DNA from: a virus
Lineage: Duplodnaviria; Caudoviricetes
DNA length: 64,000 bases
Reading direction: 5' to 3' (one strand)
IMG/VR virus record: IMGVR_UViG_3300020148_000032
The notes under the pieces were generated by a model. That model searched no databases, was not told where the DNA came from, and was given only the letters and a program-made list of their open reading frames with translations. Below, piece after piece: positions 15,382 through 45,015 of the stretch (position 1 is its first letter; every line of letters begins with the position of its first letter). Made by a program: the position numbers and the translations under genes.

Positions 15382-16842
15382 TTAAGACTTTACAATATCT
15401 CCTACGTTTAGCTGATGAACATACTGAGTTGTTATAGAATCGTTATCCAAATTTATAACATCTTTTTGATCACTAACAATTAAATCCTCAAAAGTCCCAT
15501 CGTCATAATGAACACGCGCAGTAGCTCCACGACCAGCAGACAAGAATCTCTCAAAGATAAGATCGTGTTTAATAGGGTCAAGTTCAGAAATACCTAACTC
15601 GTAAGCATGAATAGAACCCCCAACACTACCTCGTCCTACACCAATAGGATAAGCAAGAGCCTTTCCATGTTCATCGAGAGTAGAGTAGTTCTCTTTAGTC
15701 CAGTTCAAGTATTCATAAACAACTAGCATATATCCAATAAAATCTGAAGAATAAATAACTTCGAATTCATGCTTGTTGCGCCTAATTGCTTCTTCCTGAA
15801 CCTCTTTGCTAGAGTTTCCATAGCGCTCTTTAAAACCCTTGTTAATAAGGTACTGATAATATTCCACTTCATCTTTAAACTGTGAGGGAATAATAGGTTT
15901 TGGCTTCAGATGAGCGTCAAAATCAAGCTTTACGTCTTGAGCCATTTCAGCAATTACAAGAGTGTTTTTCAAGGCTCCAGGAAAATCCTGCTCTGGGAAT
16001 AAAGCATTCATTTCCTCAGTGCTTTTAAGATAATACTCGTTCCCATTAAAGGCGAACCTTTTTCCACCCTGATCATAAGGTAGCTCTGACATTCGTGAAC
16101 CCGATTGACTACAAAGCATTTCTTCGTGATGAATAGCATCTTCTTTGTGAGCATAATGAGAGTCATTAGTGGCTAAAAGAGGAATCTCTAATTTCTTGGA
16201 GAGTTCAAGTTGCTTTGGGAGAAGCTTTCTTTCAAGATCAATGTTCATATTATGATCCATGATTTCAATAAAGAATCTGTCTCCAAACACTTCTTTAAGT
16301 CTGTTAGCGTGAGAATATGCTTTTTCGTCTTGCCCTAATAGAAAACGTGTATTGATTTCACTTGAAGGGCAGCCTCCCCCTACTATAAGTCCTTCTGAAT
16401 GCTCAGCAAGCATTTCAAAGTCCATACGAGGTTTTGAATAAACATGCTCTGGCTGATAAGAAAGAGTTGATAACTTGAAGAGGTTCTTCATTCCTTCTTG
16501 ATTGATTGCCCATAACGTTAAATGGGTAAATGCTCCATTACCAGAAACATCATTTTGAACTTTTTGTCCATTAGGGCCATAGAAAATAGGTCTTTTCACT
16601 TTAGCCCCTTCTGGGTTTTCAGGAGCAAAATACGCTTCAATTCCAGGAATAGGAATAATTCCAGCAGAATTCGCTTTTCGTACTAAATCATAAACTCCAA
16701 AAGTGTTCCCATGGTCAGTAATACCAAAGCCTTTTTGTCCAAGTTTTATCACTTCATCAATGTACTCTTGTGGCTTAGAGAAACCATCAAGGATACTATT
16801 GTGAGTGTGATTATGAAGGGGGACATATTCAGACATTGACAT
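15382..16842 (-). CDS. dnaE: DNA polymerase III alpha, N-terminal part (PHP domain and N-terminal palm)
   Basis: LHNHTHNSILDG, ITDHG, GIEAY, HLTLWA, ATNDSHY, GRGSVGGS, DLIFERFL, then a 47-aa non-DnaE tail. Confidence 0.95.
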   Translation of the reverse strand: MSMSEYVPLHNHTHNSILDGFSKPQEYIDEVIKLGQKGFGITDHGNTFGVYDLVRKANSAGIIPIPGIEAYFAPENPEGAKVKRPIFYGPNGQKVQNDVSGNGAFTHLTLWAINQEGMKNLFKLSTLSYQPEHVYSKPRMDFEMLAEHSEGLIVGGGCPSSEINTRFLLGQDEKAYSHANRLKEVFGDRFFIEIMDHNMNIDLERKLLPKQLELSKKLEIPLLATNDSHYAHKEDAIHHEEMLCSQSGSRMSELPYDQGGKRFAFNGNEYYLKSTEEMNALFPEQDFPGALKNTLVIAEMAQDVKLDFDAHLKPKPIIPSQFKDEVEYYQYLINKGFKERYGNSSKEVQEEAIRRNKHEFEVIYSSDFIGYMLVVYEYLNWTKENYSTLDEHGKALAYPIGVGRGSVGGSIHAYELGISELDPIKHDLIFERFLSAGRGATARVHYDDGTFEDLIVSDQKDVINLDNDSITTQYVHQLNVGDIVKS

Positions 16843-17999: not shown

Positions 18000-18071
18000 G
18001 CCTCTGGAGCTCGAAGGCAGAGCAAAGGATTCTAAACCCTTGGTGTGCGGGTTCGACTCCCGTCAGAGGCA
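18000..18071 (+). tRNA. Amber suppressor tRNA (anticodon CUA)
   Basis: Acceptor GCCTCTG/CAGAGGC+A, D stem GCTC/GAGC, anticodon arm AAGGA-TTCTAAA-CCCTT, T arm GCGGG-TTCGACT-CCCGT. Confidence 0.9.
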
Positions 18072-18106
18072 CGATGAAAATATCATCAAAACTAAGGAGA
18101 ATTATT

Positions 18107-28292: not shown

Positions 28293-28301
28293 GTTTTATA
28301 A

Positions 28302-28553
28302 TAGCAAATCTATAACCCCGGTTCTGTACATTCAACAAGGAATGCGGTTATCATTTGTCTAAGCCCTCTACCTGAACTTTAGAAGGGTAACTCCACCCGA
28401 GTTCTTCTTGAGGTTGCTACTCGCCTCCACCTTGCTTTTTAAGTTAGGTTTCGTGCTCCAATCGAATACATTTATGTACTCTCGCACTGGGCTAGGTTAT
28501 GTAGCCGGGAGTTTCCTCAGCAATTTTTATTGCCGCGATAACCCGATTAGCTA
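28302..28553 (-). ncRNA. rnpB: Compact RNase P RNA
   Basis: P1 TAGCTAATC/GATTTGCTA; CR-I GAGGAAACTCCCGGC; CR-IV AGACAAATGAT; CR-V ACAGAACCGGGGTTA, pairing with CR-I as P4. Confidence 0.82.
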
Positions 28554-28563
28554 TTAAGTTTGG

Positions 28564-28776
28564 TTACGCCTCCGTGACCTTCACGACCACAACATTGCCA
28601 CCCTGAAGGAGGAACGCGGGGCAGGTGTCACTCTGGACAACGCTCTCAAGAACACCAACGATCTCGTCAGGAACGGCATCCATGATGTTCCACTCGCCGA
28701 CGGGTAGCTTCCAGTCAGCAACGAAAGAATAGGAACGGTTAGGGGTGGTCATTTCAGTAAAAGTAACATTGAACAT
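28564..28776 (-). CDS. Small hypothetical protein
   Basis: ORF track; AAGGA RBS. Confidence 0.7.
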   Translation of the reverse strand: MFNVTFTEMTTPNRSYSFVADWKLPVGEWNIMDAVPDEIVGVLESVVQSDTCPAFLLQGGNVVVVKVTEA

Positions 28777-28779
28777 GTT

Positions 28780-29085
28780 TTATCCTTTTTCTAGGGCTTT
28801 CGCCATTTCCATTAACTTGTTTGCCTCCGCGCGAAGCTTTTCGGCCTCTTGCAGATTTTTATTTTGTTGTTCTTGATAATTATACACCTCATCAAGAGTT
28901 TTTGCAACATCTTCCCGAGTATTTCCACCACGAAGGAAAACGTCCGAATCTATTTCTTCTACTCCATAAATTGTAGAAATTTCTTCATCAATAAGATAGC
29001 TGTCACCTACAATGCGAAGATCACCATCGACATACAATGCCGACCACTCTTCAGCGTTATAACGAACTAGCTTCATTGTGAACAC
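28780..29085 (-). CDS. Hypothetical protein
   Basis: ORF track; TTGACA-N18-TATAAT promoter at 29121-29150. Confidence 0.75.
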   Translation of the reverse strand: MFTMKLVRYNAEEWSALYVDGDLRIVGDSYLIDEEISTIYGVEEIDSDVFLRGGNTREDVAKTLDEVYNYQEQQNKNLQEAEKLRAEANKLMEMAKALEKG

Positions 29086-29153
29086 TTCCTTTCATCAAGT
29101 GGTTTTTACGCCACTTTTCTATTATAACTCACGTCATGATTATTTGTCAAATA

Positions 29154-31331: not shown

Positions 31332-31406
31332 TGGAAGCGGCTACCGGGTTCGAACCGGTGTTGACGGTTTTGCAGACCGTTGCCTAAACCACTCGGCCAA
31401 GCCGCC
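31332..31406 (-). tRNA. tRNA-Cys(GCA)
   Basis: Cloverleaf; ACGGT-CTGCAAA-ACCGT; CCA encoded. Confidence 0.93.
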
Positions 31407-31411
31407 ACAAG

Positions 31412-31484
31412 AGCCTTCTATCGGAATCGAACCGATCACCTTCCCATTACGAGTGGGACGTTCTACCAGCTGAACTAAGAAGGC
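31412..31484 (-). tRNA. tRNA-Thr(CGT)
   Basis: TCCCA-CTCGTAA-TGGGA. Confidence 0.92.
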
Positions 31485-31545
31485 ACTATAATCTTTTTGA
31501 GGAACTATGTTCATATTTTTTAAAACCTCTTAAACTGAGGTTTAG

Positions 31546-31617
31546 AGCCCCTGACAGGATTCGAACCTGCGACCTGCGCTTTAGGAAAGCGTTGTTCTTC
31601 CGCTGAACTACAAGGGC
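31546..31617 (-). tRNA. tRNA-Arg(CCT)
   Basis: ACGCT-TTCCTAA-AGCGC. Confidence 0.9.
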
Positions 31618-31750
31618 ACAACATTGTTTTCTAAAAAATATTGGAGCTAGCGCCAATATTTCCAATTGGAGCTTACCCTGATCGTGGGCATATGTTCTTT
31701 TTTCATCTTTCATCATGATCAGTGATGAAAGTTATTACACCACACTAGCG

Positions 31751-31837
31751 CGGAGTTGGTGGGATTCGAACCCACGGTCCTTTTAAGGGGACACTCGTTT
31801 TCGAGACGAGCACCTTCAGCCTCTCAGTCACAACTCC
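31751..31837 (-). tRNA. tRNA-Ser(CGA)
   Basis: CTCGT-CTCGAAA-ACGAG; long variable arm. Confidence 0.92.
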
Positions 31838-31955
31838 ATCAAATAAATAACAGGTTAGCCGCACTAGGTTACCATTCATTACATTTTACCATGTACTTTC
31901 AGCCACGGACTCATTCCCAAGAGGTAATTCGACCTGTTATTTATTTTTAAATATT

Positions 31956-32021
31956 ATCCCTTGAGCCAATCGCTCACTCCCTTGTTAAAGGCAAGGTGTT
32001 CTTCATATTAAACTAAAGGGA
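31956..32021 (-). pseudogene. Degenerate tRNA-like element (TTT anticodon, non-canonical T loop)
   Basis: CCTTG-CCTTTAA-CAAGG arm; TGAGC-GATTG-GCTCA arm. Confidence 0.45.
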
Positions 32022-32179
32022 AAAAGAACTCGATATGCCCCCAATGATTATGCAAACCATTACACTTAAGACTGCTTAAACAATCTTCAGGAATCGAACC
32101 TGTCCTCATTGTCTAGAGACAAACCTCGTTCTTTAGATTACCGTATACCGAGTTTTAAGCCTTCGGCAACATTTATCCG

Positions 32180-32254
32180 TACCTGGGATGGGATTCGAAC
32201 CCACACTGTATAGGACCTAAACCTATTGCCTCCTGCCAATTGGGCTACCCAGGC
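32180..32254 (-). tRNA. tRNA-Leu(TAG), short variable loop
   Basis: ATAGG-TTTAGGT-CCTAT. Confidence 0.9.
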
Positions 32255-32419
32255 ATTTACTCTCGAAAGAGTAATAAGTTACTATCACGATAAACGCCAC
32301 GCTATATTCAACACGTAATAACCATCTCGTTCTTATGGAATTACAAATTTAATATAGTTCTCCGCATTCTCTATTACTAGCATAATGACTACTTTAAAAG
32401 TCATTATCGTGACAATAAG

Positions 32420-32492
32420 TGCCCTATCAGGGATTCGAACCCCGGCCTCGACCGTTAAGAGCGGCCTGCTCTAACCACTGAGCTAATAAGGC
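32420..32492 (-). tRNA. tRNA-Lys(CTT)
   Basis: GGCCG-CTCTTAA-CGGTC. Confidence 0.9.
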
Positions 32493-32575
32493 ATGATTAT
32501 CTTACATTGTTTCACTATTTAATTTGTCACAAGTATTACTTGTAACCCATAACAAATGACTTGTCAAATAAAACT

Positions 32576-32791
32576 TTAGTTTTCTTCAAGTTTTTCAAGA
32601 AACATATCAACAGAAACACTAGAATGCTCTGCAATTGCGTCCATCAATGCTTCAACTTGTTCAAGAGTCGCATCTGTTACAAGTAATTTCAAATTCCACG
32701 CAGCCATTTTGTTATCCTCACATTTCAAGATAGAATTTAAATCCAAGTCGGATATCAGCCTTATTCTTGTCAATAAAATAATTAATGACAT
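32576..32791 (-). CDS. Small hypothetical protein (likely start MAAWNL near 32707)
   Basis: GAGGA RBS before an internal ATG. Confidence 0.5.
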   Translation of the reverse strand: MSLIILLTRIRLISDLDLNSILKCEDNKMAAWNLKLLVTDATLEQVEALMDAIAEHSSVSVDMFLEKLEEN

Positions 32792-32826
32792 GATTAATAC
32801 TAAGTATGAGATTCCTCTCTATTATG

Positions 32827-32913
32827 CGGAAGTGACAGGATTTGAACCTGCGGTAGAGTTTCCCCTACACTCGCTTTCCAGGCGAGCACCTTAAGCCACT
32901 CAGTCACACTTCC
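32827..32913 (-). tRNA. tRNA-Ser(GGA)
   Basis: CTCGC-CTGGAAA-GCGAG; long variable arm. Confidence 0.92.
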
Positions 32914-32917
32914 ATAA

Positions 32918-33005
32918 TACCCGCAGAAGGATTCGACCTTCACTCATTCGCAATGATGAGCATCGCCGATTAAAGCAGGGTGTTTACCCATTCCACCATG
33001 CGGAT
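32918..33005 (-). pseudogene. Degenerate Leu-like tRNA (weak anticodon stem)
   Basis: Acceptor ATCCGCA/TGCGGGT, Leu-type D arm, long variable arm, T loop missing one base. Confidence 0.5.
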
Positions 33006-33038
33006 ACATATTTATACTACCATATCTCATCAGTATAG

Positions 33039-34448
33039 TCAATTAAGATATTTCTTTTTTTTTATGAAATTATCAAGAATTTCAAGGGCTTCTTTCTTAG
33101 TTTTAAAATTACCCCTATATTGCATTTCTCTAAATTGAGAAATAATTTCTCCAACCCAAGGCCCTGGTTTCTTTGAAGAACACTCAAGAATATCTTTACC
33201 CATTACAAAATCAGGTTCATATGAAGTATATATACCTTCAAGGGCAGCCTTTTGAGAAACTTCTATAATTTCTTTATCATCAATAACCTTACCGTAAGAA
33301 TACAAACGTTCGAAAGTGAACCCTCTTGAACGAAGTTCAAATGCTAATTTCTTACGAAGATAAGTAGTTGACGCATCAGAAGACTTGAACTTGGCAAGAT
33401 CTTCAGCAATATCTTGCTTATCTCTCCCGATAAGAGAGATTGAATAAAAATCTTTTCGATCCTTTTGATTCATATTTCTAGCAATAAGAGCAGAACCAAT
33501 AATATCCTTATCCTTTTTTAAATGAGTAATTTCATTAATTCTTTTTTGAACCATTTCTGAAGATAAAGATTCTTTAAGTCCAGGGCTGATATCATCCCAA
33601 CCTGATTCTTGAAGAGCAATAACTCCATTAAGAGGTTTAGTGCTCTTTGTGAAGAATTTTTCCCATTCGCCTTGGACCCTTTCAGTTGAAAGATGTTCAT
33701 ACTCTGAACGTATAGATTGAGCGAGCTCCCTTGTATCAGGAGCCCAACGAAGGTTAAAGCGTGCAGCAAATTGGAAGCCTCTAAGAACTCTTAAAGGATC
33801 TTCAGAAAATTTACCACTTACATGACGGAGGACACGTCTATTAAGGTCACTAAGACCTCTAGACGGATCTATAATCATGTGATTTACATGGTCATACATC
33901 ATTGCATTAAGAGTAAAGTCTCTTCTTTCAGCAGCTTCAAGAAGTGTCATTTCAGTATCCATTACTACTTCGAAAGATCTGTGCCCAGCACCAACACGGT
34001 TTTCTTTACGAGGTACACTTACGTCAAGGTCGGTAACCCCTCTTCCGGAGACTTTAAGTACTCCAAATTCTTTACCCACTTCGTCAACAATGTAACCTTT
34101 ATTTTTTAAAAATTGAGCAAGGGAATCAATAGTTGTTCCGTGGACTTCAATGTCAATGTCTTTATTTGAAGAACCTGTAATGGAATCACGAACAGCACCA
34201 CCGACAATAAGAGGGGTTCCCTCTTCTTGAATTTCAGTAATAATATTATCTATTGTTTCTGGAAGTTTCATGATAAACGGTCTAACATTTTCTTTCCCAT
34301 ATTCGTTCGCTCTTTCTTGATAAAGAGATGGGTTATTAATCATGTCTTTTTGTTCTGGAGTGAATTCAAAATCTTCAAAAGGGCATGCTCTCTTTCGTGC
34401 GTTACAAAGAGAAAATGAGCCTTTAGAGTTAAGGTGATATCGTGTCAT
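33039..34448 (-). CDS. cca: CCA-adding tRNA nucleotidyltransferase with N-terminal HCC tag
   Basis: VGGAVRD, KDIDIEV, RRDFTLNAM, F.EDPLRVLRGFQFAARF, ERV.GEW.K, PGPWVG. Confidence 0.92.
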   Translation of the reverse strand: MTRYHLNSKGSFSLCNARKRACPFEDFEFTPEQKDMINNPSLYQERANEYGKENVRPFIMKLPETIDNIITEIQEEGTPLIVGGAVRDSITGSSNKDIDIEVHGTTIDSLAQFLKNKGYIVDEVGKEFGVLKVSGRGVTDLDVSVPRKENRVGAGHRSFEVVMDTEMTLLEAAERRDFTLNAMMYDHVNHMIIDPSRGLSDLNRRVLRHVSGKFSEDPLRVLRGFQFAARFNLRWAPDTRELAQSIRSEYEHLSTERVQGEWEKFFTKSTKPLNGVIALQESGWDDISPGLKESLSSEMVQKRINEITHLKKDKDIIGSALIARNMNQKDRKDFYSISLIGRDKQDIAEDLAKFKSSDASTTYLRKKLAFELRSRGFTFERLYSYGKVIDDKEIIEVSQKAALEGIYTSYEPDFVMGKDILECSSKKPGPWVGEIISQFREMQYRGNFKTKKEALEILDNFIKKKKYLN

Positions 34449-34508
34449 AAGTAGTGCACTCCTTCAAAAGTTTTTCTAAAGAGAAAACGAGTACACTTTC
34501 TTCTTTAA

Positions 34509-34586
34509 TGGTAGCCCTGACTGGATTCGAACCAGTGATCTCTTCTTTATGAGGGAAGCGCTTTCGACCGACTAAGCTACAGGGCC
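34509..34586 (-). tRNA. tRNA-Met/Ile2(CAT)
   Basis: CTTCC-CTCATAA-AGAAG; CCA encoded. Confidence 0.88.
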
Positions 34587-34602
34587 ATTATTTTGTGATG
34601 TG

Positions 34603-34685
34603 TGCCTAAAGCGGGACTCGAACCCGCACGCCCTTTCGGGCACGGCGTTCTTAGCGCCGCACGTCTACCATTCCATCATTCAGGC
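34603..34685 (-). tRNA. tRNA-Leu(AAG)
   Basis: CGGCG-CTAAGAA-CGCCG; long variable arm. Confidence 0.92.
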
Positions 34686-34785
34686 ATTGAGGATAAGGTG
34701 AGTTTTAATTCATATTCTCCTCAAAATATGAAAACCACAATGTTAGTGGCTCTCGATGTTGACATTTTATTATCCAGAAATATTG

Positions 34786-34998
34786 TCAACATGTAAAAAT
34801 TATCGGCGGATATTTTCCACCAATGTGAACTTGATAAGCAGTTCTATACAAAGAATCATCCGAACCAGAAGAGTTCAAATAATCTTTCATTCTTTTCACT
34901 ATCTTTTTTAAATTAAAGTGAGACGGTTGTGAAGAACTACCCATATAACCCAATGCTACTATTTTAGCTTGAGAATTCATCATTTCATAAGCATTCAT
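34786..34998 (-). CDS. Small hypothetical protein
   Basis: AAGGAGA RBS. Confidence 0.6.
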   Translation of the reverse strand: MNAYEMMNSQAKIVALGYMGSSSQPSHFNLKKIVKRMKDYLNSSGSDDSLYRTAYQVHIGGKYPPIIFTC

Positions 34999-35021
34999 TA
35001 TAATTCTCCTTTTAATAAATG

Positions 35022-35092
35022 CTGCCCGACTAGGATTCGAACCTAGACCTGTTGAGTCAGAGTCAAATATGCTGCCATTACACTATCGGGCA
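35022..35092 (-). tRNA. tRNA-Gln(CTG)
   Basis: TTTGA-CTCTGAC-TCAAC. Confidence 0.9.
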
Positions 35093-35101
35093 ATAGTTGG
35101 T

Positions 35102-35359
35102 TTACTTCTGATGCAAACCAAGAACAGTGATATCTCCAGTGAGAGTATCAAGAGTACAATCAACCGCGATTTCACAAAAAGCAAAACGAGCGGTTTCGGA
35201 CTTGTTAAGAAGTTCCACAATCTCTTCCTCAGAAATTGGCGCTCCGCCTTCAGCTTGATTCATAGAATAATGAATCATTTCGGCGCGCTCCTTATTAGAT
35301 CCAGCGGAGCCGCTAAGATAATAAACAAATGGAAGCTTCATGGGAAACCCTTTCAACAA
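35102..35359 (-). CDS. Small hypothetical protein (paralog of 35380..35607)
   Basis: C-terminus DCTLDTLTGDITVLG resembles KCSIDLDTGDIDILG. Confidence 0.7.
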   Translation of the reverse strand: MLKGFPMKLPFVYYLSGSAGSNKERAEMIHYSMNQAEGGAPISEEEIVELLNKSETARFAFCEIAVDCTLDTLTGDITVLGLHQK

Positions 35360-35379
35360 GAATAATGAACTATTCTATT

Positions 35380-35607
35380 CTAATTGGAAAACCCTAAAAT
35401 GTCAATGTCTCCAGTATCAAGATCAATAGAGCATTTTAATTCAACTTCTTGAAAAGAGTAATAACTTGACTTTTGTCGAATAAGTTCATAAAGTTCATCC
35501 TCAGTAAGATGATAATTAGGGTCTTTCGCAAGTTGCTCGTGAAGAATTTCAGAAAGTTCCCTGTGCGTATAATCATCATGAATAGTATGAGTAAACTTTA
35601 TTTTCAT
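35380..35607 (-). CDS. Small hypothetical protein
   Basis: Paralogous to its neighbour. Confidence 0.7.
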   Translation of the reverse strand: MKIKFTHTIHDDYTHRELSEILHEQLAKDPNYHLTEDELYELIRQKSSYYSFQEVELKCSIDLDTGDIDILGFSN

Positions 35608-35635
35608 TGGGACCTTCTATTCTGTTAAAATATAG

Positions 35636-35709
35636 TGTGACTAGACGGACTTGAACCCTCAACCACTGGTACCACAAACCAGCGCTCTACCAATTGAGCT
35701 ATAGCCACC
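35636..35709 (-). tRNA. tRNA-His(GTG), A73
   Basis: CTGGT-TTGTGGT-ACCAG. Confidence 0.88.
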
Positions 35710-35807
35710 ATCGTTACTTATTTCTTGCAACAATCTCCACCGCAAGAACAAGTGCAATCTTCTTTATCTTTATACATATTTCACCACCTTCATATGAATA
35801 ATATGAG

Positions 35808-35880
35808 AGCGAGTGACCAGATTCGAACCGGCGTTAACAGTTTGGAAGACTGTAGTACTAGGCCTCTGTACGACACTCGC
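35808..35880 (-). tRNA. tRNA-Gly(TCC) copy 1
   Basis: ACAGT-CTTCCAA-ACTGT. Confidence 0.9.
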
Positions 35881-35919
35881 AATATGTCAATATTCTATCA
35901 AGAATATCAACAAGTTTTA

Positions 35920-36093
35920 TTAATCATCAATAACAACAGAAATCATCGCCTTAGCAGAAGGATTATCGGAATGCTTTTCGAGAACCTCGACCTTATGTTC
36001 GGTAGCCTCAGCAAAAGTATCGTCATAAGAATAGACGACCCAATAGTTTCCATCAAAGAAAAGAACCATAAACTTACCAAAATGATTAAACAT
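35920..36093 (-). CDS. Small hypothetical protein (57 aa)
   Basis: AAGGA RBS, MFNHFGKFMVLFFDGNYW...; below the ORF-track cutoff. Confidence 0.55.
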   Translation of the reverse strand: MFNHFGKFMVLFFDGNYWVVYSYDDTFAEATEHKVEVLEKHSDNPSAKAMISVVIDD

Positions 36094-36335
36094 GTGAATC
36101 CTTATTTTAATAGTAGTGATGAGTTATTTCATAATAACACTATATGATAAGAATGTCAATATACTCAAAGCGCGCAGGAAGTTGAACAATTAGCGCTTCA
36201 TGTTCAACCTTTCCCGCGCCTTTAAACGGAATTTTTGTTATTCTGTAGATTAATTCTAACTACAACCCACTTTATGATGAGGGCTCGCCGTGATATCCAT
36301 ACACGGTCTCGAAGGGATACATACATATCCCGAAG

Positions 36336-36406
36336 CTGGAGTACTAGGATTCGAACCTAGACTAACTGATCCAAAGTCAGGGGTGCTGCCATTACACTAT
36401 ACTCCA
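36336..36406 (-). tRNA. tRNA-Gln(TTG)
   Basis: CCTGA-CTTTGGA-TCAGT. Confidence 0.9.
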
Positions 36407-36445
36407 AAGTTTAATGCATAATTATTAATTATATCAAGAAAAAAG

Positions 36446-36520
36446 TCTAGATAGAAGGATTCGAACCTTCGACTCCTCGGATCCAAACCGAGTACCCTGG
36501 CCAAACTGAGCTATATCTAG
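36446..36520 (-). tRNA. tRNA-Pro(TGG)
   Basis: CTCGG-TTTGGAT-CCGAG. Confidence 0.88.
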
Positions 36521-36739
36521 ATAGCAATCACAAGGATTGCTTTTTTATTAAGAATGAGAAGCACGTCTAAAACGAACTTCATTCATAGTTTTGTACGTTT
36601 CAAAATCCTTAGTTTGTAACAAAGTCTCCGAAAGAATTTCATCAAAACTTCCCATCATTTCAAGTTCAACTTCAACTTTAGAATTTATATGATACATAAG
36701 GTTCTCCTTTTTAAAAAATTTTCTATATAAAGTTTATAG

Positions 36740-36812
36740 TGAATCTAGAGGGACTCGAACCCGCAACCTCTTCCGAGTCAAGGAAGCGCTCTACCAATTG
36801 AGCTATAGATTC
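36740..36812 (-). tRNA. tRNA-Val(GAC)
   Basis: CTTCC-TTGACTC-GGAAG. Confidence 0.88.
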
Positions 36813-37014
36813 ATAAGCTGCTGTCTAAAAAATTATAAGACTATAGCAGAAGAGATAACTAGGCAGGACATACCAGGCTGGGGGAGCAGATGTGAGAGTG
36901 ATAGCATCATGGTAGTGTCCTTTCTAAGTTGAGAAACTGCAGTATAGCAGTAGTTTATGATTGAAGTGTTTCAATATGCAGAAAAAGTTTTAATCTTTTT
37001 AAGCTGCAGTGTAG

Positions 37015-37098
37015 TGTCCAGGATGGGAGTCGAACCCACATGACCTTTCGGTCACAGCGACCTCAACGCTGCGCGTATACCAATTCCGCCACCTGGAC
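37015..37098 (-). tRNA. tRNA-Leu(GAG)
   Basis: CAGCG-TTGAGGT-CGCTG. Confidence 0.92.
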
Positions 37099-37120
37099 AT
37101 TGAAGTAAAAATACTTATCG

Positions 37121-37202
37121 CGGAGGGCACGGGATTCGAACCCGCGACCGTGTTACCGGCGACCGATTTCAAGTCGGTTTGCTAACCATTCGCCTACCCT
37201 CC
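37121..37202 (-). tRNA. tRNA-Ser(TGA)
   Basis: ACCGA-CTTGAAA-TCGGT. Confidence 0.9.
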
Positions 37203-37369
37203 AAGGGTTAAAGATTAAAGAAGTTTCCCGAGCTCTAGGTTCTCTTTAATCAATCACTTTTAAAATATAACCCAAACTTTACGACACTGCCGTAGAGGGG
37301 AATCGAACCCCTCATATTTTAACGCTTAACTCTGCGCATACACATTCACGTTATAGTGTAAGAAGTAAG

Positions 37370-37442
37370 CGCCCGTAGAGAGATTCGAACTCCCGACACC
37401 TTGGTCCGAAGCCAAGTGCTCTATCCACTGAGCTATACAGGC
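37370..37442 (-). tRNA. tRNA-Arg(TCG)
   Basis: CTTGG-CTTCGGA-CCAAG. Confidence 0.92.
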
Positions 37443-37644
37443 AAAAACGAGACTAGTTTAACCAGAACACACTCGCAATATCATAATCCCTGATTCCTTA
37501 AAAAAGAAACCCGAAACTTTTCACACCAGATATTTGGCGGCTTTATTTACTCCAAGTCGAGAGTCCCTATTTTATACTCAGGAAATAAGGATCCAAGGAC
37601 AATGGTTAGTTGTCATGCTCTATGGAAGCTACAATGAAAGAAAA

Positions 37645-38703
37645 TTAGAATTTCAAGGCAAGATTAGAGCAATTATTAGGAATAAACTCCTTTTTATCTT
37701 CTAAATCTTGAATAGAAACACCAACATGAGAAAAACGAACACTCTCACCAACAATAATAAAAAGATTCAAGTCAGAATTCTTATCAAAAGAATCCCTCAT
37801 TTTATGAAGCATATCATCTGTAACCCAACCTTTATATTCTATATAAAGATCATAATCTTCAATGTAAAAATCAGGATAAAATTTCCTATTCTTTCCTTCT
37901 AAAGTCACATAAGGGAAACCCTTAGAATTACGTGTCCAATTAATAGGTAAAGAATCAAGAAAATTAGCAACCCTAATTTCCTCACGATTTAAATACATTA
38001 TCTCACCACTTTTTACAGTGTGATGAAAGTTTTTACTGCGACCTCCGCCAGGACGTAGACCACCATTATTAGAAAGATCGCGTCCAGCAAAAGAACACTT
38101 ATTAGAGCAAAATTTTCGAGTAGTAGTATTAGCGAAAAATTCTTTCTTACACATTGAGCAGAATATATAACGGGGACCCACTTTTTGTCTTTTTATTTTA
38201 CTTAAAGATCTACTCTTTCTCTCAGAATTTTTGCATTCAAGATTACAATATTTTGACTTACTACTATTAGATTTAAAGTCTTTTTTGCAAACAAAACATG
38301 TATGTGAATAAACTCTTAAAGAAACTATTTTAGTGCTACATTCTATAGAGCAAAATTTTAATCCTTTTCTGTTACCAGAGCGGCCCGCATATTTTTCAAA
38401 AACTTTGTTACAAGATTGATTTTGACAAATAAGTATCTTCCAGCCTTTAGCTCTACGTTTAGCGCAAACTTCAGAAGATCCATGAGCAATTAAACTTTTA
38501 TTAGTTTTAAATTCTGTTTTACAAGAAGAACAGAAAGTAGAATTAGGGTCGATTTTACGAGTTTTATAAGAAATATTATGAACCATTTTAAGATGAGTTC
38601 TCATTCCCATAAAAGTGAGAAATTTTCTTTCACAAGTTTTAAAATCACAAGGAATAATAAGCTCAGAAGGATCGGCATCTGTGGATCTCTTTGTTTTAGT
38701 CAT
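37645..38703 (-). CDS. Multi-Zn-finger PD-(D/E)xK endonuclease (homing endonuclease-like)
   Basis: C2H2 and C..C..FCS..C repeats; FYPDFYI...LYIEYKGW. Confidence 0.8.
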   Translation of the reverse strand: MTKTKRSTDADPSELIIPCDFKTCERKFLTFMGMRTHLKMVHNISYKTRKIDPNSTFCSSCKTEFKTNKSLIAHGSSEVCAKRRAKGWKILICQNQSCNKVFEKYAGRSGNRKGLKFCSIECSTKIVSLRVYSHTCFVCKKDFKSNSSKSKYCNLECKNSERKSRSLSKIKRQKVGPRYIFCSMCKKEFFANTTTRKFCSNKCSFAGRDLSNNGGLRPGGGRSKNFHHTVKSGEIMYLNREEIRVANFLDSLPINWTRNSKGFPYVTLEGKNRKFYPDFYIEDYDLYIEYKGWVTDDMLHKMRDSFDKNSDLNLFIIVGESVRFSHVGVSIQDLEDKKEFIPNNCSNLALKF

Positions 38704-38729
38704 ATGATTATTTTATCAAAAATTAATCG

Positions 38730-38800
38730 CAGGAGTACTAGGAATCGAACCCAGATCATCGAGGTTGGAGCTCGAGATTTTACCATTAAACTACACTCCT
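38730..38800 (-). tRNA. tRNA-Trp(CCA)
   Basis: TCGAG-CTCCAAC-CTCGA. Confidence 0.92.
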
Positions 38801-38946
38801 ATAGTGTAAAAATGAAATAAAGAGAACTCTTCCAACATATTCCAAAATATTGCATCATTTTCCAGAATGATAAAGAGTGCAACCGAAAGGTTAAAGATAA
38901 GGATCACCCTTCGTAATCTAATTCGGACTGGAATCCGACCCTATCG

Positions 38947-39017
38947 AGCTAATGACGAGAATCGAACTCGCGTTATCTCGTTGGCAACGAGAAGTTTTAC
39001 CATTAAACTACATTAGC
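38947..39017 (-). tRNA. tRNA-Gly(GCC)
   Basis: TCTCG-TTGCCAA-CGAGA. Confidence 0.92.
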
Positions 39018-39292
39018 ATTTGGCCTTTTCTTCCGTGAGGGTAGTACCATACCCCTTCGCTTCATTCCTGTCGGCGGCCGTTTCCTTTATGCCTCTAGTG
39101 TTTAACGGGTTAATCATCGTGGTCTCCCAACGGACCTACCACAATATTTTATTATATCAGAAAATTTACGAACTTTCATATTTGGTATTCGTAATGAGAG
39201 CCGATAACTCCTCAACCTCATAAGGGTACATCAACCTGGGGCTCGAAGAAATCTTTTTCAATTTCGGCAGGCATCACTTGCATTCCTTATAG

Positions 39293-39378
39293 TAACGGAG
39301 GCGGGATTTGAACCACTTATATAATTGCGACCTCTAGGTTATGAGCCTAGCGAGCACTCCGAGCTGCTCCACTCCGTG
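39293..39378 (-). tRNA. Initiator-like tRNA-Met(CAT) with insertion in the T stem
   Basis: C1:U72 mismatch; CTAGG-CTCATAA-CCTAG; AATTATATAAGT inserted before GGTTCAAATCC. Confidence 0.75.
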
Positions 39379-39391
39379 TCGTTATCATTCG

Positions 39392-39467
39392 TAGCGGTGA
39401 CAGGATTCGCACCTGCGATCTCTAGGATATGAGCCTAGCGGGGACAACTGAACTCCCCTACACCGCG
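39392..39467 (-). tRNA. Initiator-like tRNA-Met(CAT)
   Basis: C1:U72 mismatch; CTAGG-CTCATAT-CCTAG; T loop TGCGAAT. Confidence 0.82.
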
Positions 39468-39519
39468 CTTAAGGGATGAAGTATTCTGCGTAATATTGTT
39501 ACGAGATTTTTCATCCTAG

Positions 39520-39592
39520 AGCCACCTATCGGGTTCGAACCGATGACCTTCTCATTACTAGTGAGATGCTCTACCAACTGAGCTAAGGGGGC
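39520..39592 (-). tRNA. tRNA-Thr(AGT)
   Basis: TCTCA-CTAGTAA-TGAGA. Confidence 0.9.
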
Positions 39593-39717
39593 AGTGAGGA
39601 ATGATGAATTCCTCTAAGTTAATACATAGTAAGACCACCTGACTTAATCATGTTATCATCATAATCAAGTACTGGAGAATCCTCGCGGAGTTTCCCTTCT
39701 TATTTTTGTTAACTTTG

Positions 39718-39791
39718 AGCCCCTTGTCAGGTTCGAACTGACGACCTTTCGCTTACAAGGCGAACGCTCTGACCAACTGAGCTAAGGGGGC
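39718..39791 (-). tRNA. tRNA-Thr(TGT)
   Basis: TTCGC-CTTGTAA-GCGAA. Confidence 0.92.
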
Positions 39792-39834
39792 ATGGTGATA
39801 GACTGAATTCAATATATTCATCTTCAATCTATCG

Positions 39835-39906
39835 TGGAGAATAGGGGACTCGAACCCCTAACCTTGACCTTGCAAAGGTCCTGCGCTACCATTGCGCCAA
39901 TTCCCC
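39835..39906 (-). tRNA. tRNA-Ala(TGC)
   Basis: G3:U70; GGACC-TTTGCAA-GGTCA. Confidence 0.92.
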
Positions 39907-39961
39907 ATCGTAACTTTTTGAAAGTTACGTTAGTAACACTATTTTAATATCAGTATTTGAT

Positions 39962-40036
39962 TGGTACCCCCGGGCAGAGTTGAACTGCCTTCATCATGTT
40001 ATAAGCATGAGGTCCTAACCCGTAGACGACAGGGGC
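39962..40036 (-). tRNA. tRNA-Ile(TAT)
   Basis: TCATG-CTTATAA-CATGA; CCA encoded. Confidence 0.88.
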
Positions 40037-40098
40037 ATAATTTTTTAATTATGGTATTACTATATCAATTTTTTTGAAAAAGTCAAATTGTTTAATAA

Positions 40099-40173
40099 TG
40101 GTAGGCCCCCTGGGATTCGAACCCAGAACCTGCGGATTAAAAGTCCGTAGCTCTGCCGTTGAGCTAGAGGCCC
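40099..40173 (-). tRNA. tRNA-Lys(TTT)
   Basis: ACGGA-CTTTTAA-TCCGC; CCA encoded. Confidence 0.92.
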
Positions 40174-40197
40174 ATCTTTATATCATTTTCTAACGCG

Positions 40198-40271
40198 TGG
40201 ACCCGAGGAGAATCGAACTCCTCGCACTAACCTTGCAAAGGTTGGTCGCCCCCCTTGGAACATGCGAGCCC
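40198..40271 (-). tRNA. tRNA-Ala(TGC), atypical D arm
   Basis: G3:U70; CAACC-TTTGCAA-GGTTA. Confidence 0.8.
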
Positions 40272-40275
40272 ATTT

Positions 40276-40393
40276 GAAAGTTTCATTTATAGGAATGATA
40301 CTTACAAACACCCAGGCTCCTCCACCTGGATTCGAACCAGGAACCTTAGAGTTAACAGCTCTCTGCTCTGCCGTTGAGCTATGGAGGAATAGG
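40276..40393. repeat. 118-bp direct repeat copy 1 (tRNA-Asn plus flank); copy 2 at 45851..45968
   Basis: gaaagtttcatttataggaatgatacttacaaacacc... identical apart from one mismatch. Confidence 0.92.
40317..40388 (-). tRNA. tRNA-Asn(GTT)
   Basis: GAGAG-CTGTTAA-CTCTA. Confidence 0.92.
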
Positions 40394-40640
40394 TTGTCAC
40401 TATATTTCCATTAAGGAATTATAGAAATATTTTCCACATAACCACATTTCAGTTTGATCATCATATATTTCTTCAGCGAACAGATCCACAATAAAGGAGA
40501 CATAGTCCCCTTTTATATTATATATGTAATCATATGAAGTGTATTGTGATGGGTTGTTAATTCACCATTCTTTATGTAATTTTTTCTTTTATTTTCATTA
40601 TATTCTCCTTTATATATTTTTATATGGAGATATTCATGAG

Positions 40641-40715
40641 TGCGCGTTGAGGGACTCGAACCCCCGACCGCCTCGGTGTAAACGAGGAACTCTAACCAAC
40701 TGAGTTTAAACGCGC
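40641..40715 (-). tRNA. tRNA-Val(TAC)
   Basis: CCTCG-TTTACAC-CGAGG. Confidence 0.92.
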
Positions 40716-40775
40716 ATGATGTTTTGTCGAGCAAGTACACTATACTATATCAGTATAGTGATTGTCAAATTGACG

Positions 40776-40848
40776 CTCCAGGTATAGGAATCGAACCTAT
40801 GCCGCCCTGATTCAAAGTCAGGGTTCCCATGCCAGCAGAGAACCTGGA
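40776..40848 (-). tRNA. tRNA-Gln(TTG), atypical D arm
   Basis: CCTGA-CTTTGAA-TCAGG. Confidence 0.8.
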
Positions 40849-41042
40849 AAACCGACTAGAAGGGACCAACCTTTTCACGGTTACTTATTTTCGTTTAAGT
40901 AGTACCTAACCATCTCTTGGTTAGTCTGTTTTTCGAACGGTGTAGTTTTAGTATACACGAGATACTGTCGTTTCTTCGGCGATCACGACAAGCGCCCCAC
41001 AAGCCCAGTGGGTGGGGAGACGAGCGGTTAATTCATCTCGTG

Positions 41043-41115
41043 CGCGCCCGGAGGGATTCGAACCCCCAACCTTCTGATCCGTAGTCAGATGCTCTATCCG
41101 TTGAGCCACGAGCGC
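41043..41115 (-). tRNA. tRNA-Arg(ACG)
   Basis: TCTGA-CTACGGA-TCAGA. Confidence 0.94.
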
Positions 41116-41517
41116 ATGGTCGCCTTTTAAGATCTTGTTCCCACATACTTGGAGCACCCCTTAAAAGACTTCATGATAAGTCACAAATATCACGCATTCG
41201 GTTAGTTTCCCTTATTCTGGTCAGGAATCTAACACCTTACCAGGGGCGTTCAATGGAGAGTTAATCTTCACTAAACGTTTTAATATGACGCGACTCATAT
41301 TAAGAATTAGGTGGCAATCGCGTTCACCAACTTAGAATCATTGCCTTTTGAATAGACACCCACCGTGGGCGCGAATGCGCTATATTTTAAAAAGATAATC
41401 CCTACATTGTACAGAGTAGGGTAAATAGTGAAGAGATGTTCGGGAGAATAGCCAATCGCCGTGCTTTCGAGAGCATTTTTCCTTCATTATTTAACTAGGG
41501 TATCACTATCTATAGAG

Positions 41518-41601
41518 TGGGCCCGGCCAGATTCGAACTGGCAACGTTTCTCCGTCACTGTTTTACAGACAGCTTGCTTCAGCCAATTTGCATACGGACC
41601 C
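41518..41601 (-). tRNA. tRNA-Tyr(GTA)
   Basis: GCTGT-CTGTAAA-ACAGT; long variable arm. Confidence 0.88.
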
Positions 41602-41888
41602 AAAGTGTGTTGATTTTTGAAAGATAGGTTCAACACACAAAACCTTCTCAAACATGAAAGTTTGAATTATCACTAGTTTAAAGACACTTTGGCTGGAACC
41701 TTTCACCCTTGTAAGAGTTTCCAGTAACTCATACCACTCCTTAGAGGTGGGAAGACGAAGTGTGCCTCTACTCCGAAAGATCATGATAACCCGACTCCTG
41801 TCGTTCTCTCATACAACCGTGTATTATGAGGAGTTGAACCTCAAGAGTTTACCTACACCTTTTGATAGGTGCGAGGTTACCATTAAAG

Positions 41889-41961
41889 AGCGAGTGACCG
41901 GATTCGAACCGGCGTTAACAGTTTGGAAGACTGTAGTACTAGGCCTCTGTACGACACTCGC
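41889..41961 (-). tRNA. tRNA-Gly(TCC) copy 2
   Basis: Differs from 35808..35880 by one base. Confidence 0.92.
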
Positions 41962-42057
41962 AAAGCGATATAGCGGTCTCACGCATTGACGCCAACATGT
42001 AGCGTCTCAACCCTTTGTACTGGGTATATCATCGCGGGCTTGGTTTTCACCTGAGCG

Positions 42058-42139
42058 CTCCCCCACCTGGACTCGAACCAGGAGGAATAAATTCACGGAT
42101 TAACAGTCCGTCCCGCTGCCAATTACGGTTTATGAGGGA
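42058..42139 (-). tRNA. tRNA-Asn(GTT) with extended variable region
   Basis: ACGGA-CTGTTAA-TCCGT; extra arm GAATTTATTC. Confidence 0.82.
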
Positions 42140-42254
42140 ATAGGAAAGAGATTTTTATGTCAGGCTCTCTTTCATTGTACCCTATCTGGGAACCCAGAGT
42201 ATTTGCATGTTGACATTAATGCAATATGTTCAACTTAACATCGAACATGCAAAG

Positions 42255-42328
42255 CGACCGCGACGGGGCTCGAACCCGCGACCTCTACCGTGACAGGGTA
42301 GCGCTCTGACCAACTGAGCTACGCGGCC
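42255..42328 (-). tRNA. tRNA-Asp(GTC)
   Basis: CTACC-CTGTCAC-GGTAG. Confidence 0.94.
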
Positions 42329-42363
42329 ATAATAGTTTAACGTCAGTTTCGGACGAAAATGAT

Positions 42364-42528
42364 TTAGGTATTAATAACTGCACGACGCTTCGGGAAGAGT
42401 CGAGACTTAATCTTGGTCATTTCACGCTTGGTAGCGCGATAATTACGCTCGTTTTCTCGAATGAAAGCAAGCTCCTCGACAATTCGCTTGCGACGATTCT
42501 CAGCCTTGACCTGTGCATTAGTAGCCAT
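42364..42528 (-). CDS. Small basic protein (54 aa)
   Basis: AAGGA RBS; MATNAQVKAENRRKRIVEELAFIRENERNYRATKREMTKIKSRLFPKRRAVINT. Confidence 0.7.
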   Translation of the reverse strand: MATNAQVKAENRRKRIVEELAFIRENERNYRATKREMTKIKSRLFPKRRAVINT

Positions 42529-42592
42529 TGTGTTATCCTTACTTCGTGCTTTTTTATTACTTACATAAGATCCACATTTTCATGCGGAACAG

Positions 42593-42666
42593 CGACCGCA
42601 ACGGGACTCGAACCCGCGACCTCCACCTTGACAGGGTGGCGCTCTAACCGACTGAGCTATGCAGCC
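42593..42666 (-). tRNA. tRNA-Asp(GTC)
   Basis: CCACC-CTGTCAA-GGTGG. Confidence 0.93.
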
Positions 42667-42874
42667 ATATATTTCGACCTACGGGTTCTTCCGTCAGTGG
42701 TATTATCATTCCGGATTTCAAATACCTAACCTCTAGTAAGTACGTAGATTCTATACACTTCCAATGTTATAAATTTTTGTGTTGGCTAACGAAAACCTAT
42801 GACATTGTTTGATAAAGCAGTTTGCCATGCCAAACTACATCGAAATAATGTTCTTTCATATTTTTATGAAATAG

Positions 42875-42946
42875 TAAGTATTATAGGATTCGAACCTATA
42901 TCTCTCAGCGGGTAAGCCGAGTGCTCTTCCATTAAGCTAAACACTC
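42875..42946 (-). tRNA. tRNA with 8-nt anticodon loop (identity uncertain)
   Basis: Acceptor GAGTGTT/AATACTT; CTCGG-CTTACCCG-CTGAG; canonical T arm. Confidence 0.65.
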
Positions 42947-43048
42947 CATCTAATCACGAGCAGATCACACTCTGCCAAACGCGGCAACGTTTGCCCAAGT
43001 GGTGCATCTCGAATTGATAACAAGAATTGCCGTCCTTGTTACTCCTTG

Positions 43049-43122
43049 TACCCCCTCAGGGATTCGAACCCTGGACCCACTGATTAAGAGTCAGTTGCTC
43101 TAACCTACTGAGCTAAGGAGGC
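43049..43122 (-). tRNA. tRNA-Lys(CTT)
   Basis: ACTGA-CTCTTAA-TCAGT. Confidence 0.93.
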
Positions 43123-43323
43123 ATAAATGTTTATGCTATTGTATCAGTTTTTACATAAACTTTATTCTTTCGAATGTCTGGGGTTATATTTTTATCTCTG
43201 ACCCAGTAAGGGGCGGTTACGTTACATTAGCGTTATCTCCAGATAATCATCGTTGAAGTTGCATCATTGACTTAAAGGAATTGAACCTTTACTAACCTTG
43301 TCACTGGACAAGGTAACCTACCG

Positions 43324-43396
43324 TGCCACCGGTCGGAATCGAACCGACGACCTTTCGTTCTTCAGACGAACGCTCTACCAATTGAGCTACAGTGGC
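43324..43396 (-). tRNA. tRNA-Phe(GAA)
   Basis: TTCGT-CTGAAGA-ACGAA. Confidence 0.93.
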
Positions 43397-43440
43397 ATTC
43401 ATATCACTTTTGATTTATCAAGTTTCATTCAATAAGTAAT

Positions 43441-43469
43441 ATTATACATGAAGTGATTCCTCATGTCAA
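43441..43469 (-). promoter_or_regulatory. Consensus sigma70 promoter inside the tRNA array
   Basis: TTGACA-N17-TATAAT on the minus strand. Confidence 0.85.
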
Positions 43470-43497
43470 ATCAAAACCGAATAAAGTTTTGAAAGAG

Positions 43498-43571
43498 TGC
43501 GGGTACCTGGACTTGAACCAGGGACCTTCGACTTATCAGGTCGATGCTCTAACCAACTGAGCTACACCCGC
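43498..43571 (-). tRNA. tRNA-Ile(GAT)
   Basis: TCGAC-CTGATAA-GTCGA. Confidence 0.93.
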
Positions 43572-43682
43572 ATAAAATGAAGAATACCTCTTAATAAGGA
43601 AGTTCCTGGCATCGGCGAGAAAATCTCATGGACGTGATAATCCATTATTCTTCATTTTTCTTACTGTATTAAACAGTAATCG

Positions 43683-43754
43683 TACCCCGACGGAGAATCG
43701 AACTCCGGCGACGAGGTCGAAAGTCTGGCGTACTAACCTCTATACTACAGGGGC
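43683..43754 (-). tRNA. tRNA-Glu(TTC), mismatched anticodon stem
   Basis: CCAGA-CTTTCGA-CCTCG; paralog of 44165..44236. Confidence 0.75.
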
Positions 43755-43755
43755 A

Positions 43756-43832
43756 TGGGGTGTCTGACGGGATTCGAACCCGCGGATGACCGAGTCACAG
43801 TCGGCTGCGTTAACCTTTTCGCCACAGACACC
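43756..43832 (-). tRNA. tRNA-His(GTG)
   Basis: G-1:C73; GCCGA-CTGTGAC-TCGGT; CCA encoded. Confidence 0.92.
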
Positions 43833-44164
43833 ATCGGGGTATAAAGTGGCCACAATATACCCCTATAACATAAAATAATATAATAATTAAAATAATATAA
43901 TAATAAATAAATAATATTGTAAAAATGCGAAGTTTTTGTTCACTTGAAATAAAGTCTTTATTATGATGCTTTATACCACGGGTGTTTATATCCCGGATTA
44001 CATATAAAGATCATTTTATACATTCCAAATTTAGAGAATGCATAAATCTTCACTTGCCGACTTTCACCGACAATTAAAATAATCAACTAAAGAATCGAAC
44101 TTTAGAACCCTATTTTTCAGTAAATGGGCTTCCTAATTTTGATTATCACCTGCTTAACGCATTG

Positions 44165-44236
44165 TACCCCGACGGAGAATCGAACTCCGGCTACCAGATT
44201 GAAAGTCTAGCGTACTAACCTCTATACTACCGGGGC
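44165..44236 (-). tRNA. tRNA-Glu(TTC)
   Basis: CTAGA-CTTTCAA-TCTGG. Confidence 0.88.
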
Positions 44237-44283
44237 AAGGTGTCTAGAATTATGGGGACCGCCCCGACTAGACTCAATGTATA

Positions 44284-44997
44284 TTACATTCCAATGAAAT
44301 CATTGGAAATTTTTATCCATTTCTTGGGTTCACGATAAAATTCTCTCCATAGTATTCTTAATACTACCCATCCTTCATCAGAGGCAAGGGAATCCTTTGT
44401 TTTATCAGAAATAATTTGACGTTGATAACGAATGTGTTGATCGCCATCGATTTCAATTACTTTCTTTTTGTGAAGCCAAGCAAAATCGAAAGAATACTTT
44501 TCAAAAGGGTATTCTCTCACAAAATTTTTATCATCAAACTCGTTTTCAATAACTTGAGTGAAGAATTTTTCAGGATAAGATTCATTGATGCTTGGATTTA
44601 ACCACCGCATGGCTTGATTCTTTTTATGTTTATCCTTCATTATTGAAGAAAGTTTCTCTTTCGTCTTTTTTGAATGTTTTCGTCCAAGATTTGGAGAATT
44701 AATTCTTTCAGGGTTTGAATAACAATAGTTTTTATGTAATCCAAACCCAGATTTGTTTGTATTAAAAATTTTCATGCACCATTCGCACGTAAATTTTCTA
44801 CGTTTAATTGAATTCTTTGAAATGAAATCACTTTTAGTGTGAGCCATTTCTTTGTTATGTTGTTGCATCTTTCTCCTTGTAGAGAAAGTTAAACAACATA
44901 ATGAGCAATTCCATTGTGGAGAACCGTTGCATTTTTTAATGTGTAGAGAAAGGGCATGTTTTGTGAAGTTTTTAACTTTACATTGTGAACATTCCAT
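44284..44997 (-). CDS. C2H2 Zn-finger / NUMOD3 / DUF559(Vsr)-like endonuclease
   Basis: Start MECSQC at 44997 (track start overlaps tRNA-Ser); GRKHSKKTKEKLS; YSFDFAW...VIEIDGDQH...DKTKD...GWVVLRI.W. Confidence 0.82.
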   Translation of the reverse strand: MECSQCKVKNFTKHALSLHIKKCNGSPQWNCSLCCLTFSTRRKMQQHNKEMAHTKSDFISKNSIKRRKFTCEWCMKIFNTNKSGFGLHKNYCYSNPERINSPNLGRKHSKKTKEKLSSIMKDKHKKNQAMRWLNPSINESYPEKFFTQVIENEFDDKNFVREYPFEKYSFDFAWLHKKKVIEIDGDQHIRYQRQIISDKTKDSLASDEGWVVLRILWREFYREPKKWIKISNDFIGM

Positions 44998-45015
44998 TTT
45001 TATCAACACCTTAAG

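Follow-up and report, generated by a model that had tools for sequence, protein, structure and literature searches.

A small RNase P RNA homolog on a large plasmid- or phage-like element belongs to a family with a complete catalytic half and a reduced specificity domain

The minus strand of the window (the whole 64,000-nucleotide stretch analysed here, from IMG/VR record IMGVR_UViG_3300020148_000032) carries at positions 28299-28556 a homolog of RNase P RNA, 258 nt long from P1 to P1. It retains the whole catalytic half (P1-P6, P15-P17, the bulged U, A248 and the GGU of L15), and P12, P13, P14, P18 and the CR-II/CR-III double T-loop, which is the reader of the tRNA elbow, have been lost. RNase P RNA, which trims new tRNAs, is regarded as a housekeeping ribozyme of cells, with the double T-loop as its near-universal means of measuring tRNA. 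A family of plasmid and phage RNAs that keeps the catalytic half and drops the elbow reader tests the minimum size of a working RNase P, and also whether mobile elements supply their own tRNA maturation. Judged from sequence, the chances are about even that these RNAs (208-275 nt), present on giant actinobacterial plasmids and phages, are RNase P ribozymes of a separate structural type, which are active with no protein beyond host RnpA and recognize their substrate through a single conserved hairpin loop in place of the double T-loop.

The full Rfam covariance model RF00010 matches positions 28297-28554 with 80.4 bits (E 7.3e-25), and the family covariance model (R1) scores the window RNA at 183 bits. 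The Infernal comparison with the Rfam RNase P models, which the initial annotation had proposed as a check, returned a significant match, though one below the curated cut-off. Since the gathering score of RF00010 is 100 bits, a default Rfam scan is silent on the window RNA, and other family members (51-84 bits) likewise fall under this cut-off; default Rfam thresholds hide these RNA genes in finished genomes. The window contains the CR-I and CR-V motif pair a single time, against none in 200 shuffles, and no ORF of at least 60 aa overlaps the RNA, in agreement with the earlier description of an ORF-free minus-strand region. The same RNA, of identical length and with the same 80.4 bits, is present in an independent Logan assembly (L283). 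Minimum free energy folding of the window RNA is by itself weakly unusual (z -2.07), so the case for its structure rests on covariation.

The RNA is closed by a genuine P1 (5' strand 28544-28556, pairing with 28299-28312), which is slightly longer than first claimed and co-varies at 7 of 8 pairs. P2 (5' strand 28537-28543, partner 28346-28352) has 7 bp as in bacteria, all seven of them co-varying, and leads to a P3 hairpin (28519-28534, placed by alignment) of variable length in the family. P4 is formed by CR-I (28505-28518, from the RF00010 match and covariation), with the bulged U at 28510, and by CR-V (28313-28327, RF00010 match). Together with CR-IV (J15/2, 28352-28364, RF00010 match), these regions lie on the minus strand in the order and places originally assigned to them. 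The P4 5' strand has C at the equivalents of positions 68 (28511) and 72 (28507), with compensating G at 28316 and 28319 in the 3' strand; the pairs 28511/28316 and 28507/28319, which correspond to 68-358 and 72-355 of the E. coli RNA, have both changed from G-C to C-G, bearing out the proposal that the P4 changes are compensatory. Position 68 binds metal via its phosphate (PMC9433436), and because the contact is made in this way, a base swap there is tolerable. The swap to C at position 68 also leaves the P4 5' strand (28508-28513) complementary over 6 nt to the P17 loop (28386-28391), as is likewise seen in the family member L158, which is a possible competing fold.

The segment 28493-28504 holds the 5' strands of P5 and of the P6 pseudoknot, which pairs with the P17 loop and co-varies at 4 of 4 pairs. 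The P5 3' strand and J5/15 follow at 28414-28420, with the A248 equivalent at 28415. The P15-L15-P16-P17 arm (28365-28413, identified by the RF00010 match and covariation) contains the L15 GGU motif at 28370-28372 and is not followed by P18. A short P19 hairpin (28328-28345, by alignment) is missing from most family members.

By comparison with RF00010, 39 nt replace 110 model positions of the specificity domain, and P18 is replaced by 0 nt. Only two helices stand between the P7 strands. Helix A (28453-28487, from alignment and folding) occupies the P8/P9 position, may correspond to either P8 or P9, and consists of a 4-bp core, a 2x7 internal loop and a variable extension. A 3-nt linker separates it from helix B (28429-28449), which is placed at the P10/P11 position by its loop motif, covariation and comparison with the RF00010 consensus, in which linker and helix align to the P10/P11 bulge and to P11. 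Helix B is capped by a 13-nt loop (28433-28445; 13-14 nt and conserved in the family), which stands in for CR-II, P12, CR-III, P13 and P14. As this loop keeps the CR-II flanks and helix B sits at the P11 position, it is probably a fused remnant of CR-II and CR-III, with room for one U-turn or T-loop and not for two. The view that this is an RNase P RNA homolog with an intact catalytic core and a strongly reduced specificity domain is thus upheld by the RF00010 match and by covariation.

Pattern scans of IMG/VR and metagenomes, plus blastn of phage records, yielded 20 relatives, which share 52-68% identity with the window RNA. The 21-member alignment has 92.1% of its cells paired, against 32-44% in slid controls, and two-sided changes at 38 of 51 pairs, a number reached in none of 500 shuffles. 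Related sequences contribute to these covariation counts, and the alignment was also the source of the structure, which makes the counts support and not a probability. P4 of the window RNA comprises 8 Watson-Crick pairs around the bulged U, and the helix is 100% paired in the 21 members; four of its pairs co-vary, with four pair types at 68-358 (G-C, C-G, A-U and U-G) and three at 72-355. Covariation is also present in P2, P6, P15, P16, P17 and helix B. The bulged U and J5/15 with the A248 equivalent are conserved in 21/21 members, the L15 GGU in 20/21 and the 13-nt loop motif in 19/21. No member has the canonical CR-II motif (0/21), or CR-II and CR-III together (0/21). The family covariance model gives its own members 165-212 bits, which follows by construction as it was built from them; no other RNase P RNA tested scored above 88 bits.

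The double P4 swap of the window RNA recurs in L158, on a 727.6-kb contig, which is probably circular because it was assembled twice with different start points. A blastn comparison of the window RNA with phages and plasmids gave nothing real, the looser viral patterns gave chance matches for the most part, and the exact variant CR-I motif had 59 viral matches, which are attributed to chance because none has CR-V. The family pattern had 0 matches in 185,579 GTDB genomes, a lower bound given the exact matching. The linkage to tRNA genes is established, with a tRNA within 1.8 kb at 15 of 17 family loci and within 6 nt at seven of them. One tRNA array with a family member also contains a manA RNA-like match (L154 920-1105; 49.4 bits, under the cut-off).

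In four cultured Microbacterium phages (A3Wally, Big4, Zooman and a fourth), tRNA-Arg(CCG) and tRNA-Arg(CCU) directly flank a family RNA of about 213 nt, and no feature is annotated in that slot. The finished genomes of these phages bear on whether the window RNA is a decaying fragment of a captured rnpB or an assembly artefact, which its score under the Rfam cut-off would allow. The presence of the family in these phages, the recovery of the same RNA in an independent assembly, and the coherence of the family with its dense compensatory changes largely refute that idea and leave it barely conceivable. In the Big4 and Zooman RNAs (L141 603-823 and L142 601-821) P4 is shifted to G-C at 67-359 and U-G at 68-358. 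The tRNA labels of the A3Wally GenBank record (L139 / L282, MZ150783.1) read the anticodon as a codon, so that CCG, an Arg anticodon, appears for instance as tRNA-Pro.

The family RNA had no match in phages Cece, Pumpernickel, Talia1610 and Atuin or in four Arthrobacter-group megaplasmids, so the RNA gene is accessory and dispensable among relatives. In the related phage Cece, an unannotated short tRNA-like stretch (L281 14973-15054) fills the RNA slot. With four cultured phages that have the RNA and grow on a routine laboratory host, and a related cultured phage that does not have it, expression, activity and effects on fitness are measurable.

The window RNA starts 7 nt past the stop codon of the second of two small ORFs (28780-29085 and 28564-28776), which lie between it and a perfect (12/12) sigma-70-type promoter match on the minus strand (29121-29150). 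Because the promoter precedes both ORFs and the RNA begins so close to the second stop, the RNA is probably co-transcribed with them from the predicted promoter at 29150 and then trimmed. Directly downstream of the RNA is a GC-rich 15-bp hairpin (28261-28293), which had been described as a strong terminator. The hairpin is real, but its U-tract is on the plus strand only, and a standard terminator on the RNA's own strand was rejected for want of a minus-strand U-tract. By the usual rule this hairpin would terminate the convergent plus-strand gene 27603-28079, and it is possibly a bidirectional terminator.

The window belongs to a 436,884-bp contig, has a GC content of 37%, and encodes 54 tRNA genes, a tmRNA (20613-20959, minus strand), which is a usual RNase P substrate and has a tag peptide that we take to look actinobacterial, and a CCA-adding-family enzyme. 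The label "phage-encoded" holds for the family, given the cultured Microbacterium phages, but is not borne out for the window, where no clear virion gene (capsid, terminase, portal or tail) was found among the approximately 70 proteins scanned in 64 of 437 kb; an NlpC/P60 domain in the window is of a kind also found in tail proteins. Pilus or conjugation genes and the replication genes of a megaplasmid were likewise not found in the 64-kb window. The window does have cell-surface genes, and its proteins include two signal peptidases I and PASTA, G5-NlpC/P60, AdhE and adhesin-like proteins, along with DnaX, HolA and a DnaE in two pieces, for which the best matches are in actinobacterial phages and plasmids.

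Among other carriers, the family member on the 885-kb contig L153 adjoins type IV pilin genes, and L096 (IMG/VR record, G001) encodes pilus ATPases and no terminase. The best plasmid matches of the nucleotidyltransferase of the window are to actinobacterial plasmids of 375-816 kb (29-42% identity), one of which, the 816-kb plasmid of Miltoncostaea oceani, carries a separate RNase P RNA variant of 260 nt next to gltX. The carrier is probably an actinobacterial mobile element; it is likely to be megaplasmid-like, and a phage or phage-plasmid is the less probable assignment. The Miltoncostaea variant (L208 1501-1760; NZ_CP064357.1 377614-377873) shares the internal loop of helix A and is missing the 13-nt loop. 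DnaE appears to be divided between two minus-strand genes about 4 kb apart (15382-16842 and 8585-11233), which may reflect a split intein or a two-chain polymerase, and the first ends in a C-terminal extension. A His-Cys-Cys-His mini-domain begins the proteins of 27603-28079 (plus strand) and 33039-34448 (minus strand), and is also present on L158 proteins.

On the same strand as the RNA lies an array of 53 tRNA genes (31332-46297), which are its likely substrates, and within this array is a poly(A) polymerase/CCA-adding-family nucleotidyltransferase (PF01743; 33039-34448, minus strand). An encoded CCA is missing in 49 of the 54 window tRNA genes. The elbows of these tRNAs are canonical, with T-loop UUCRA in 53/54 and D-loop GG in 53/54, and U is at position -1 in 48/54. 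Odd elbows that might have co-evolved with the RNA were thereby rejected, as was a U-1/C74 bias as a marker of carriers, since the bias is also present in phage Cece, which is without the RNA (U-1 in 28/39 and C74 in 39/39). As the elbows are canonical and the bias is shared with Cece, the tRNAs of the element give no reason for the missing elbow reader; nothing about their elbows forces a special enzyme, and they should be readable by host RNase P as well. A tRNA with a CUA anticodon, resembling an amber suppressor, is found alone and away from the array at 18000-18072 (plus strand); the window ORFs read normally in code 11. The tRNA at 42874-42946 (minus strand) has an 8-nt anticodon loop, called as a four-base anticodon, and G at -1.

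Probably the RNA is catalytically active and relies on host RnpA in maturing the tRNAs and tmRNA of the element, and processing of the element's own tRNAs is plausible on the sequence evidence. RnpA (PF00825) was not found in seven carrier records (A3Wally, Big4, Zooman, the Miltoncostaea plasmid and three large IMG/VR records) and one fragment, in a search with positive controls, and had no match among 39 small ORFs of the window; for the element of the window, the search for a protein partner covered 64 of 437 kb. The RNA, derived from type A, would be transcribed, probably from the promoter at 29150, fold into a standard catalytic domain and borrow host RnpA as its protein subunit. Pre-tRNA would be held by its 5' leader, through A248, CR-IV and RnpA, and by the pairing of L15 to its 3' end, and metal ions at P4 would take part in cutting the leader. 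The double T-loop would give way to a single short hairpin, whose conserved 13-nt loop resembles a U-turn and would either make a simpler elbow contact or dock inside the RNA. The CCA-adding enzyme of the element would work alongside the RNA, and the giant actinobacterial element would gain capacity for tRNA and tmRNA maturation, either additional to that of the host or independent of it. Because the substrates offer no reason for losing the elbow reader, the benefit is more likely to be such capacity, or independence from host rnpB levels, than the handling of special substrates.

The loss of the elbow reader alongside canonical tRNAs, with L15 retained, could also point to an active ribozyme of changed or relaxed specificity, which would cut hairpin-plus-RCC substrates generally and not mainly pre-tRNA, including the joints of polycistronic tRNAs, tmRNA, mRNA leaders and host RNAs. 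Constructs consisting of the catalytic domain only do cut model hairpins (PMC5839562), but the consistent linkage of the RNA to tRNA genes, often directly between two of them, argues for pre-tRNA, and this alternative is considered unlikely. The strong conservation of the 13-nt loop across otherwise divergent RNAs may be read differently again, as the candidate binding site of a protein, encoded by the element, that takes over from the missing specificity domain, on the model of the archaeal type T enzymes, which rely on several proteins and whose RNAs show the same kind of loss (PMC3579882). This is quite unlikely, as no shared neighbouring protein was noticed in a non-systematic reading of the loci and the bacterial features of the catalytic half, the 7-bp P2 and the L15 GGU, have been kept.

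Model enzymes become less active once the specificity domain is gone (PMC5839562), which, together with the patchy distribution of the family, is consistent with a decoy that would bind host RnpA or pre-tRNAs while cutting little or nothing, and in this way dampen or divert host RNase P. The conservation of the metal-binding bulged U, the P4 register, A248 and L15, and the need of the element's own tRNAs for 5' processing, speak against a decoy and make it improbable. Probable activity with host RnpA on the element's tRNAs and tmRNA remains the preferred reading. If it is correct, few natural RNase P RNAs would be as small, and within the literature found this would be the first one shown to function on a virus or plasmid, with a possible takeover or bypass of host tRNA maturation. 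No published description of a phage- or plasmid-encoded RNase P RNA, minimal or full-size, was found in the literature searched, which had little coverage of subscription journals. An RNase P-like sequence was reportedly described in orthopoxviruses in about 2004-2005 and found inactive.

The family shares its location on mobile elements, usually among tRNA genes, with full-size RNase P RNAs that have a near-complete specificity domain and occur both in large viral contigs, within their tRNA arrays, and in Microcystis phage MaAM05. The MaAM05 record (L143 1461-1862, MW495066.1) lists no feature over its full-size RNA. Other reduced RNase P RNAs are present in viral tRNA arrays (L103 40-311, L122 1745-2054 and L166 677-887), and their differing remnants suggest independent reductions. 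The theta ribozymes of gut phages are likewise phage-encoded and tied to tRNA processing, but are small HDV-like ribozymes that self-cleave in cis beside a tRNA, with a fold unrelated to RNase P RNA (PMC10879173).

The initial annotation set the length of about 250 nt against the 350-400 nt typical of bacterial rnpB RNAs. Size alone was rejected as the novelty, as a GTDB scan returned 69 comparably short RNase P RNAs of cellular origin, mainly from CPR and Elusimicrobia, in line with the reduced RNAs of CPR/Patescibacteria (PMC8172020). The RNAs of CPR/Patescibacteria, Elusimicrobia and Mycoplasma fermentans resemble the window RNA in their length of about 250 nt, in often missing P13, P14 and P18, and in their low RF00010 scores. 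These short cellular RNAs are chromosomal and differ from it in keeping both CR-II and CR-III around a short P12 (66/69), in G-C at 68-358 (69/69), in having no 13-nt loop (0/69) and in scoring at most 88 bits with the family model.

The archaeal type T RNAs are also similarly small, have lost most of the specificity domain and have a small loop ending the P10 position, but their P2 has 3 bp, P15 is shortened, J5/15 has 2 nt and the proteins are archaeal (PMC3579882), whereas the window RNA has a 7-bp P2, a 3-nt J5/15 and the L15 GGU; the resemblance is convergent. The closest known class is type A (rnpB or M1 RNA, RF00010), which is the best Rfam match and has in common with the window RNA P1-P5, the 7-bp P2, the P4 bulged U, the P6 pseudoknot, P15-P16-P17, the L15 GGU, A248 and CR-I/IV/V. 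In the E. coli enzyme the parts that have been kept are those binding metal, the leader and the 3' RCC of tRNA, which pairs with L15 (PMC9433436). Isolated catalytic domains from E. coli and Pyrococcus cleave in trans and require P6 but can dispense with P18 (PMC5839562), and the window RNA, with P6 kept and P18 lost, matches these needs. It departs from type A in its length (258 nt against a 367-position model), in being without P12, P13, P14, P18 and canonical CR-II/CR-III, in C-G at 68-358, and in its location on a mobile element for which no rnpA was found. By its sequence features, the window RNA has a type A-like catalytic domain, is placed outside type A by its specificity domain, and falls outside both type T and the CPR-type RNAs.
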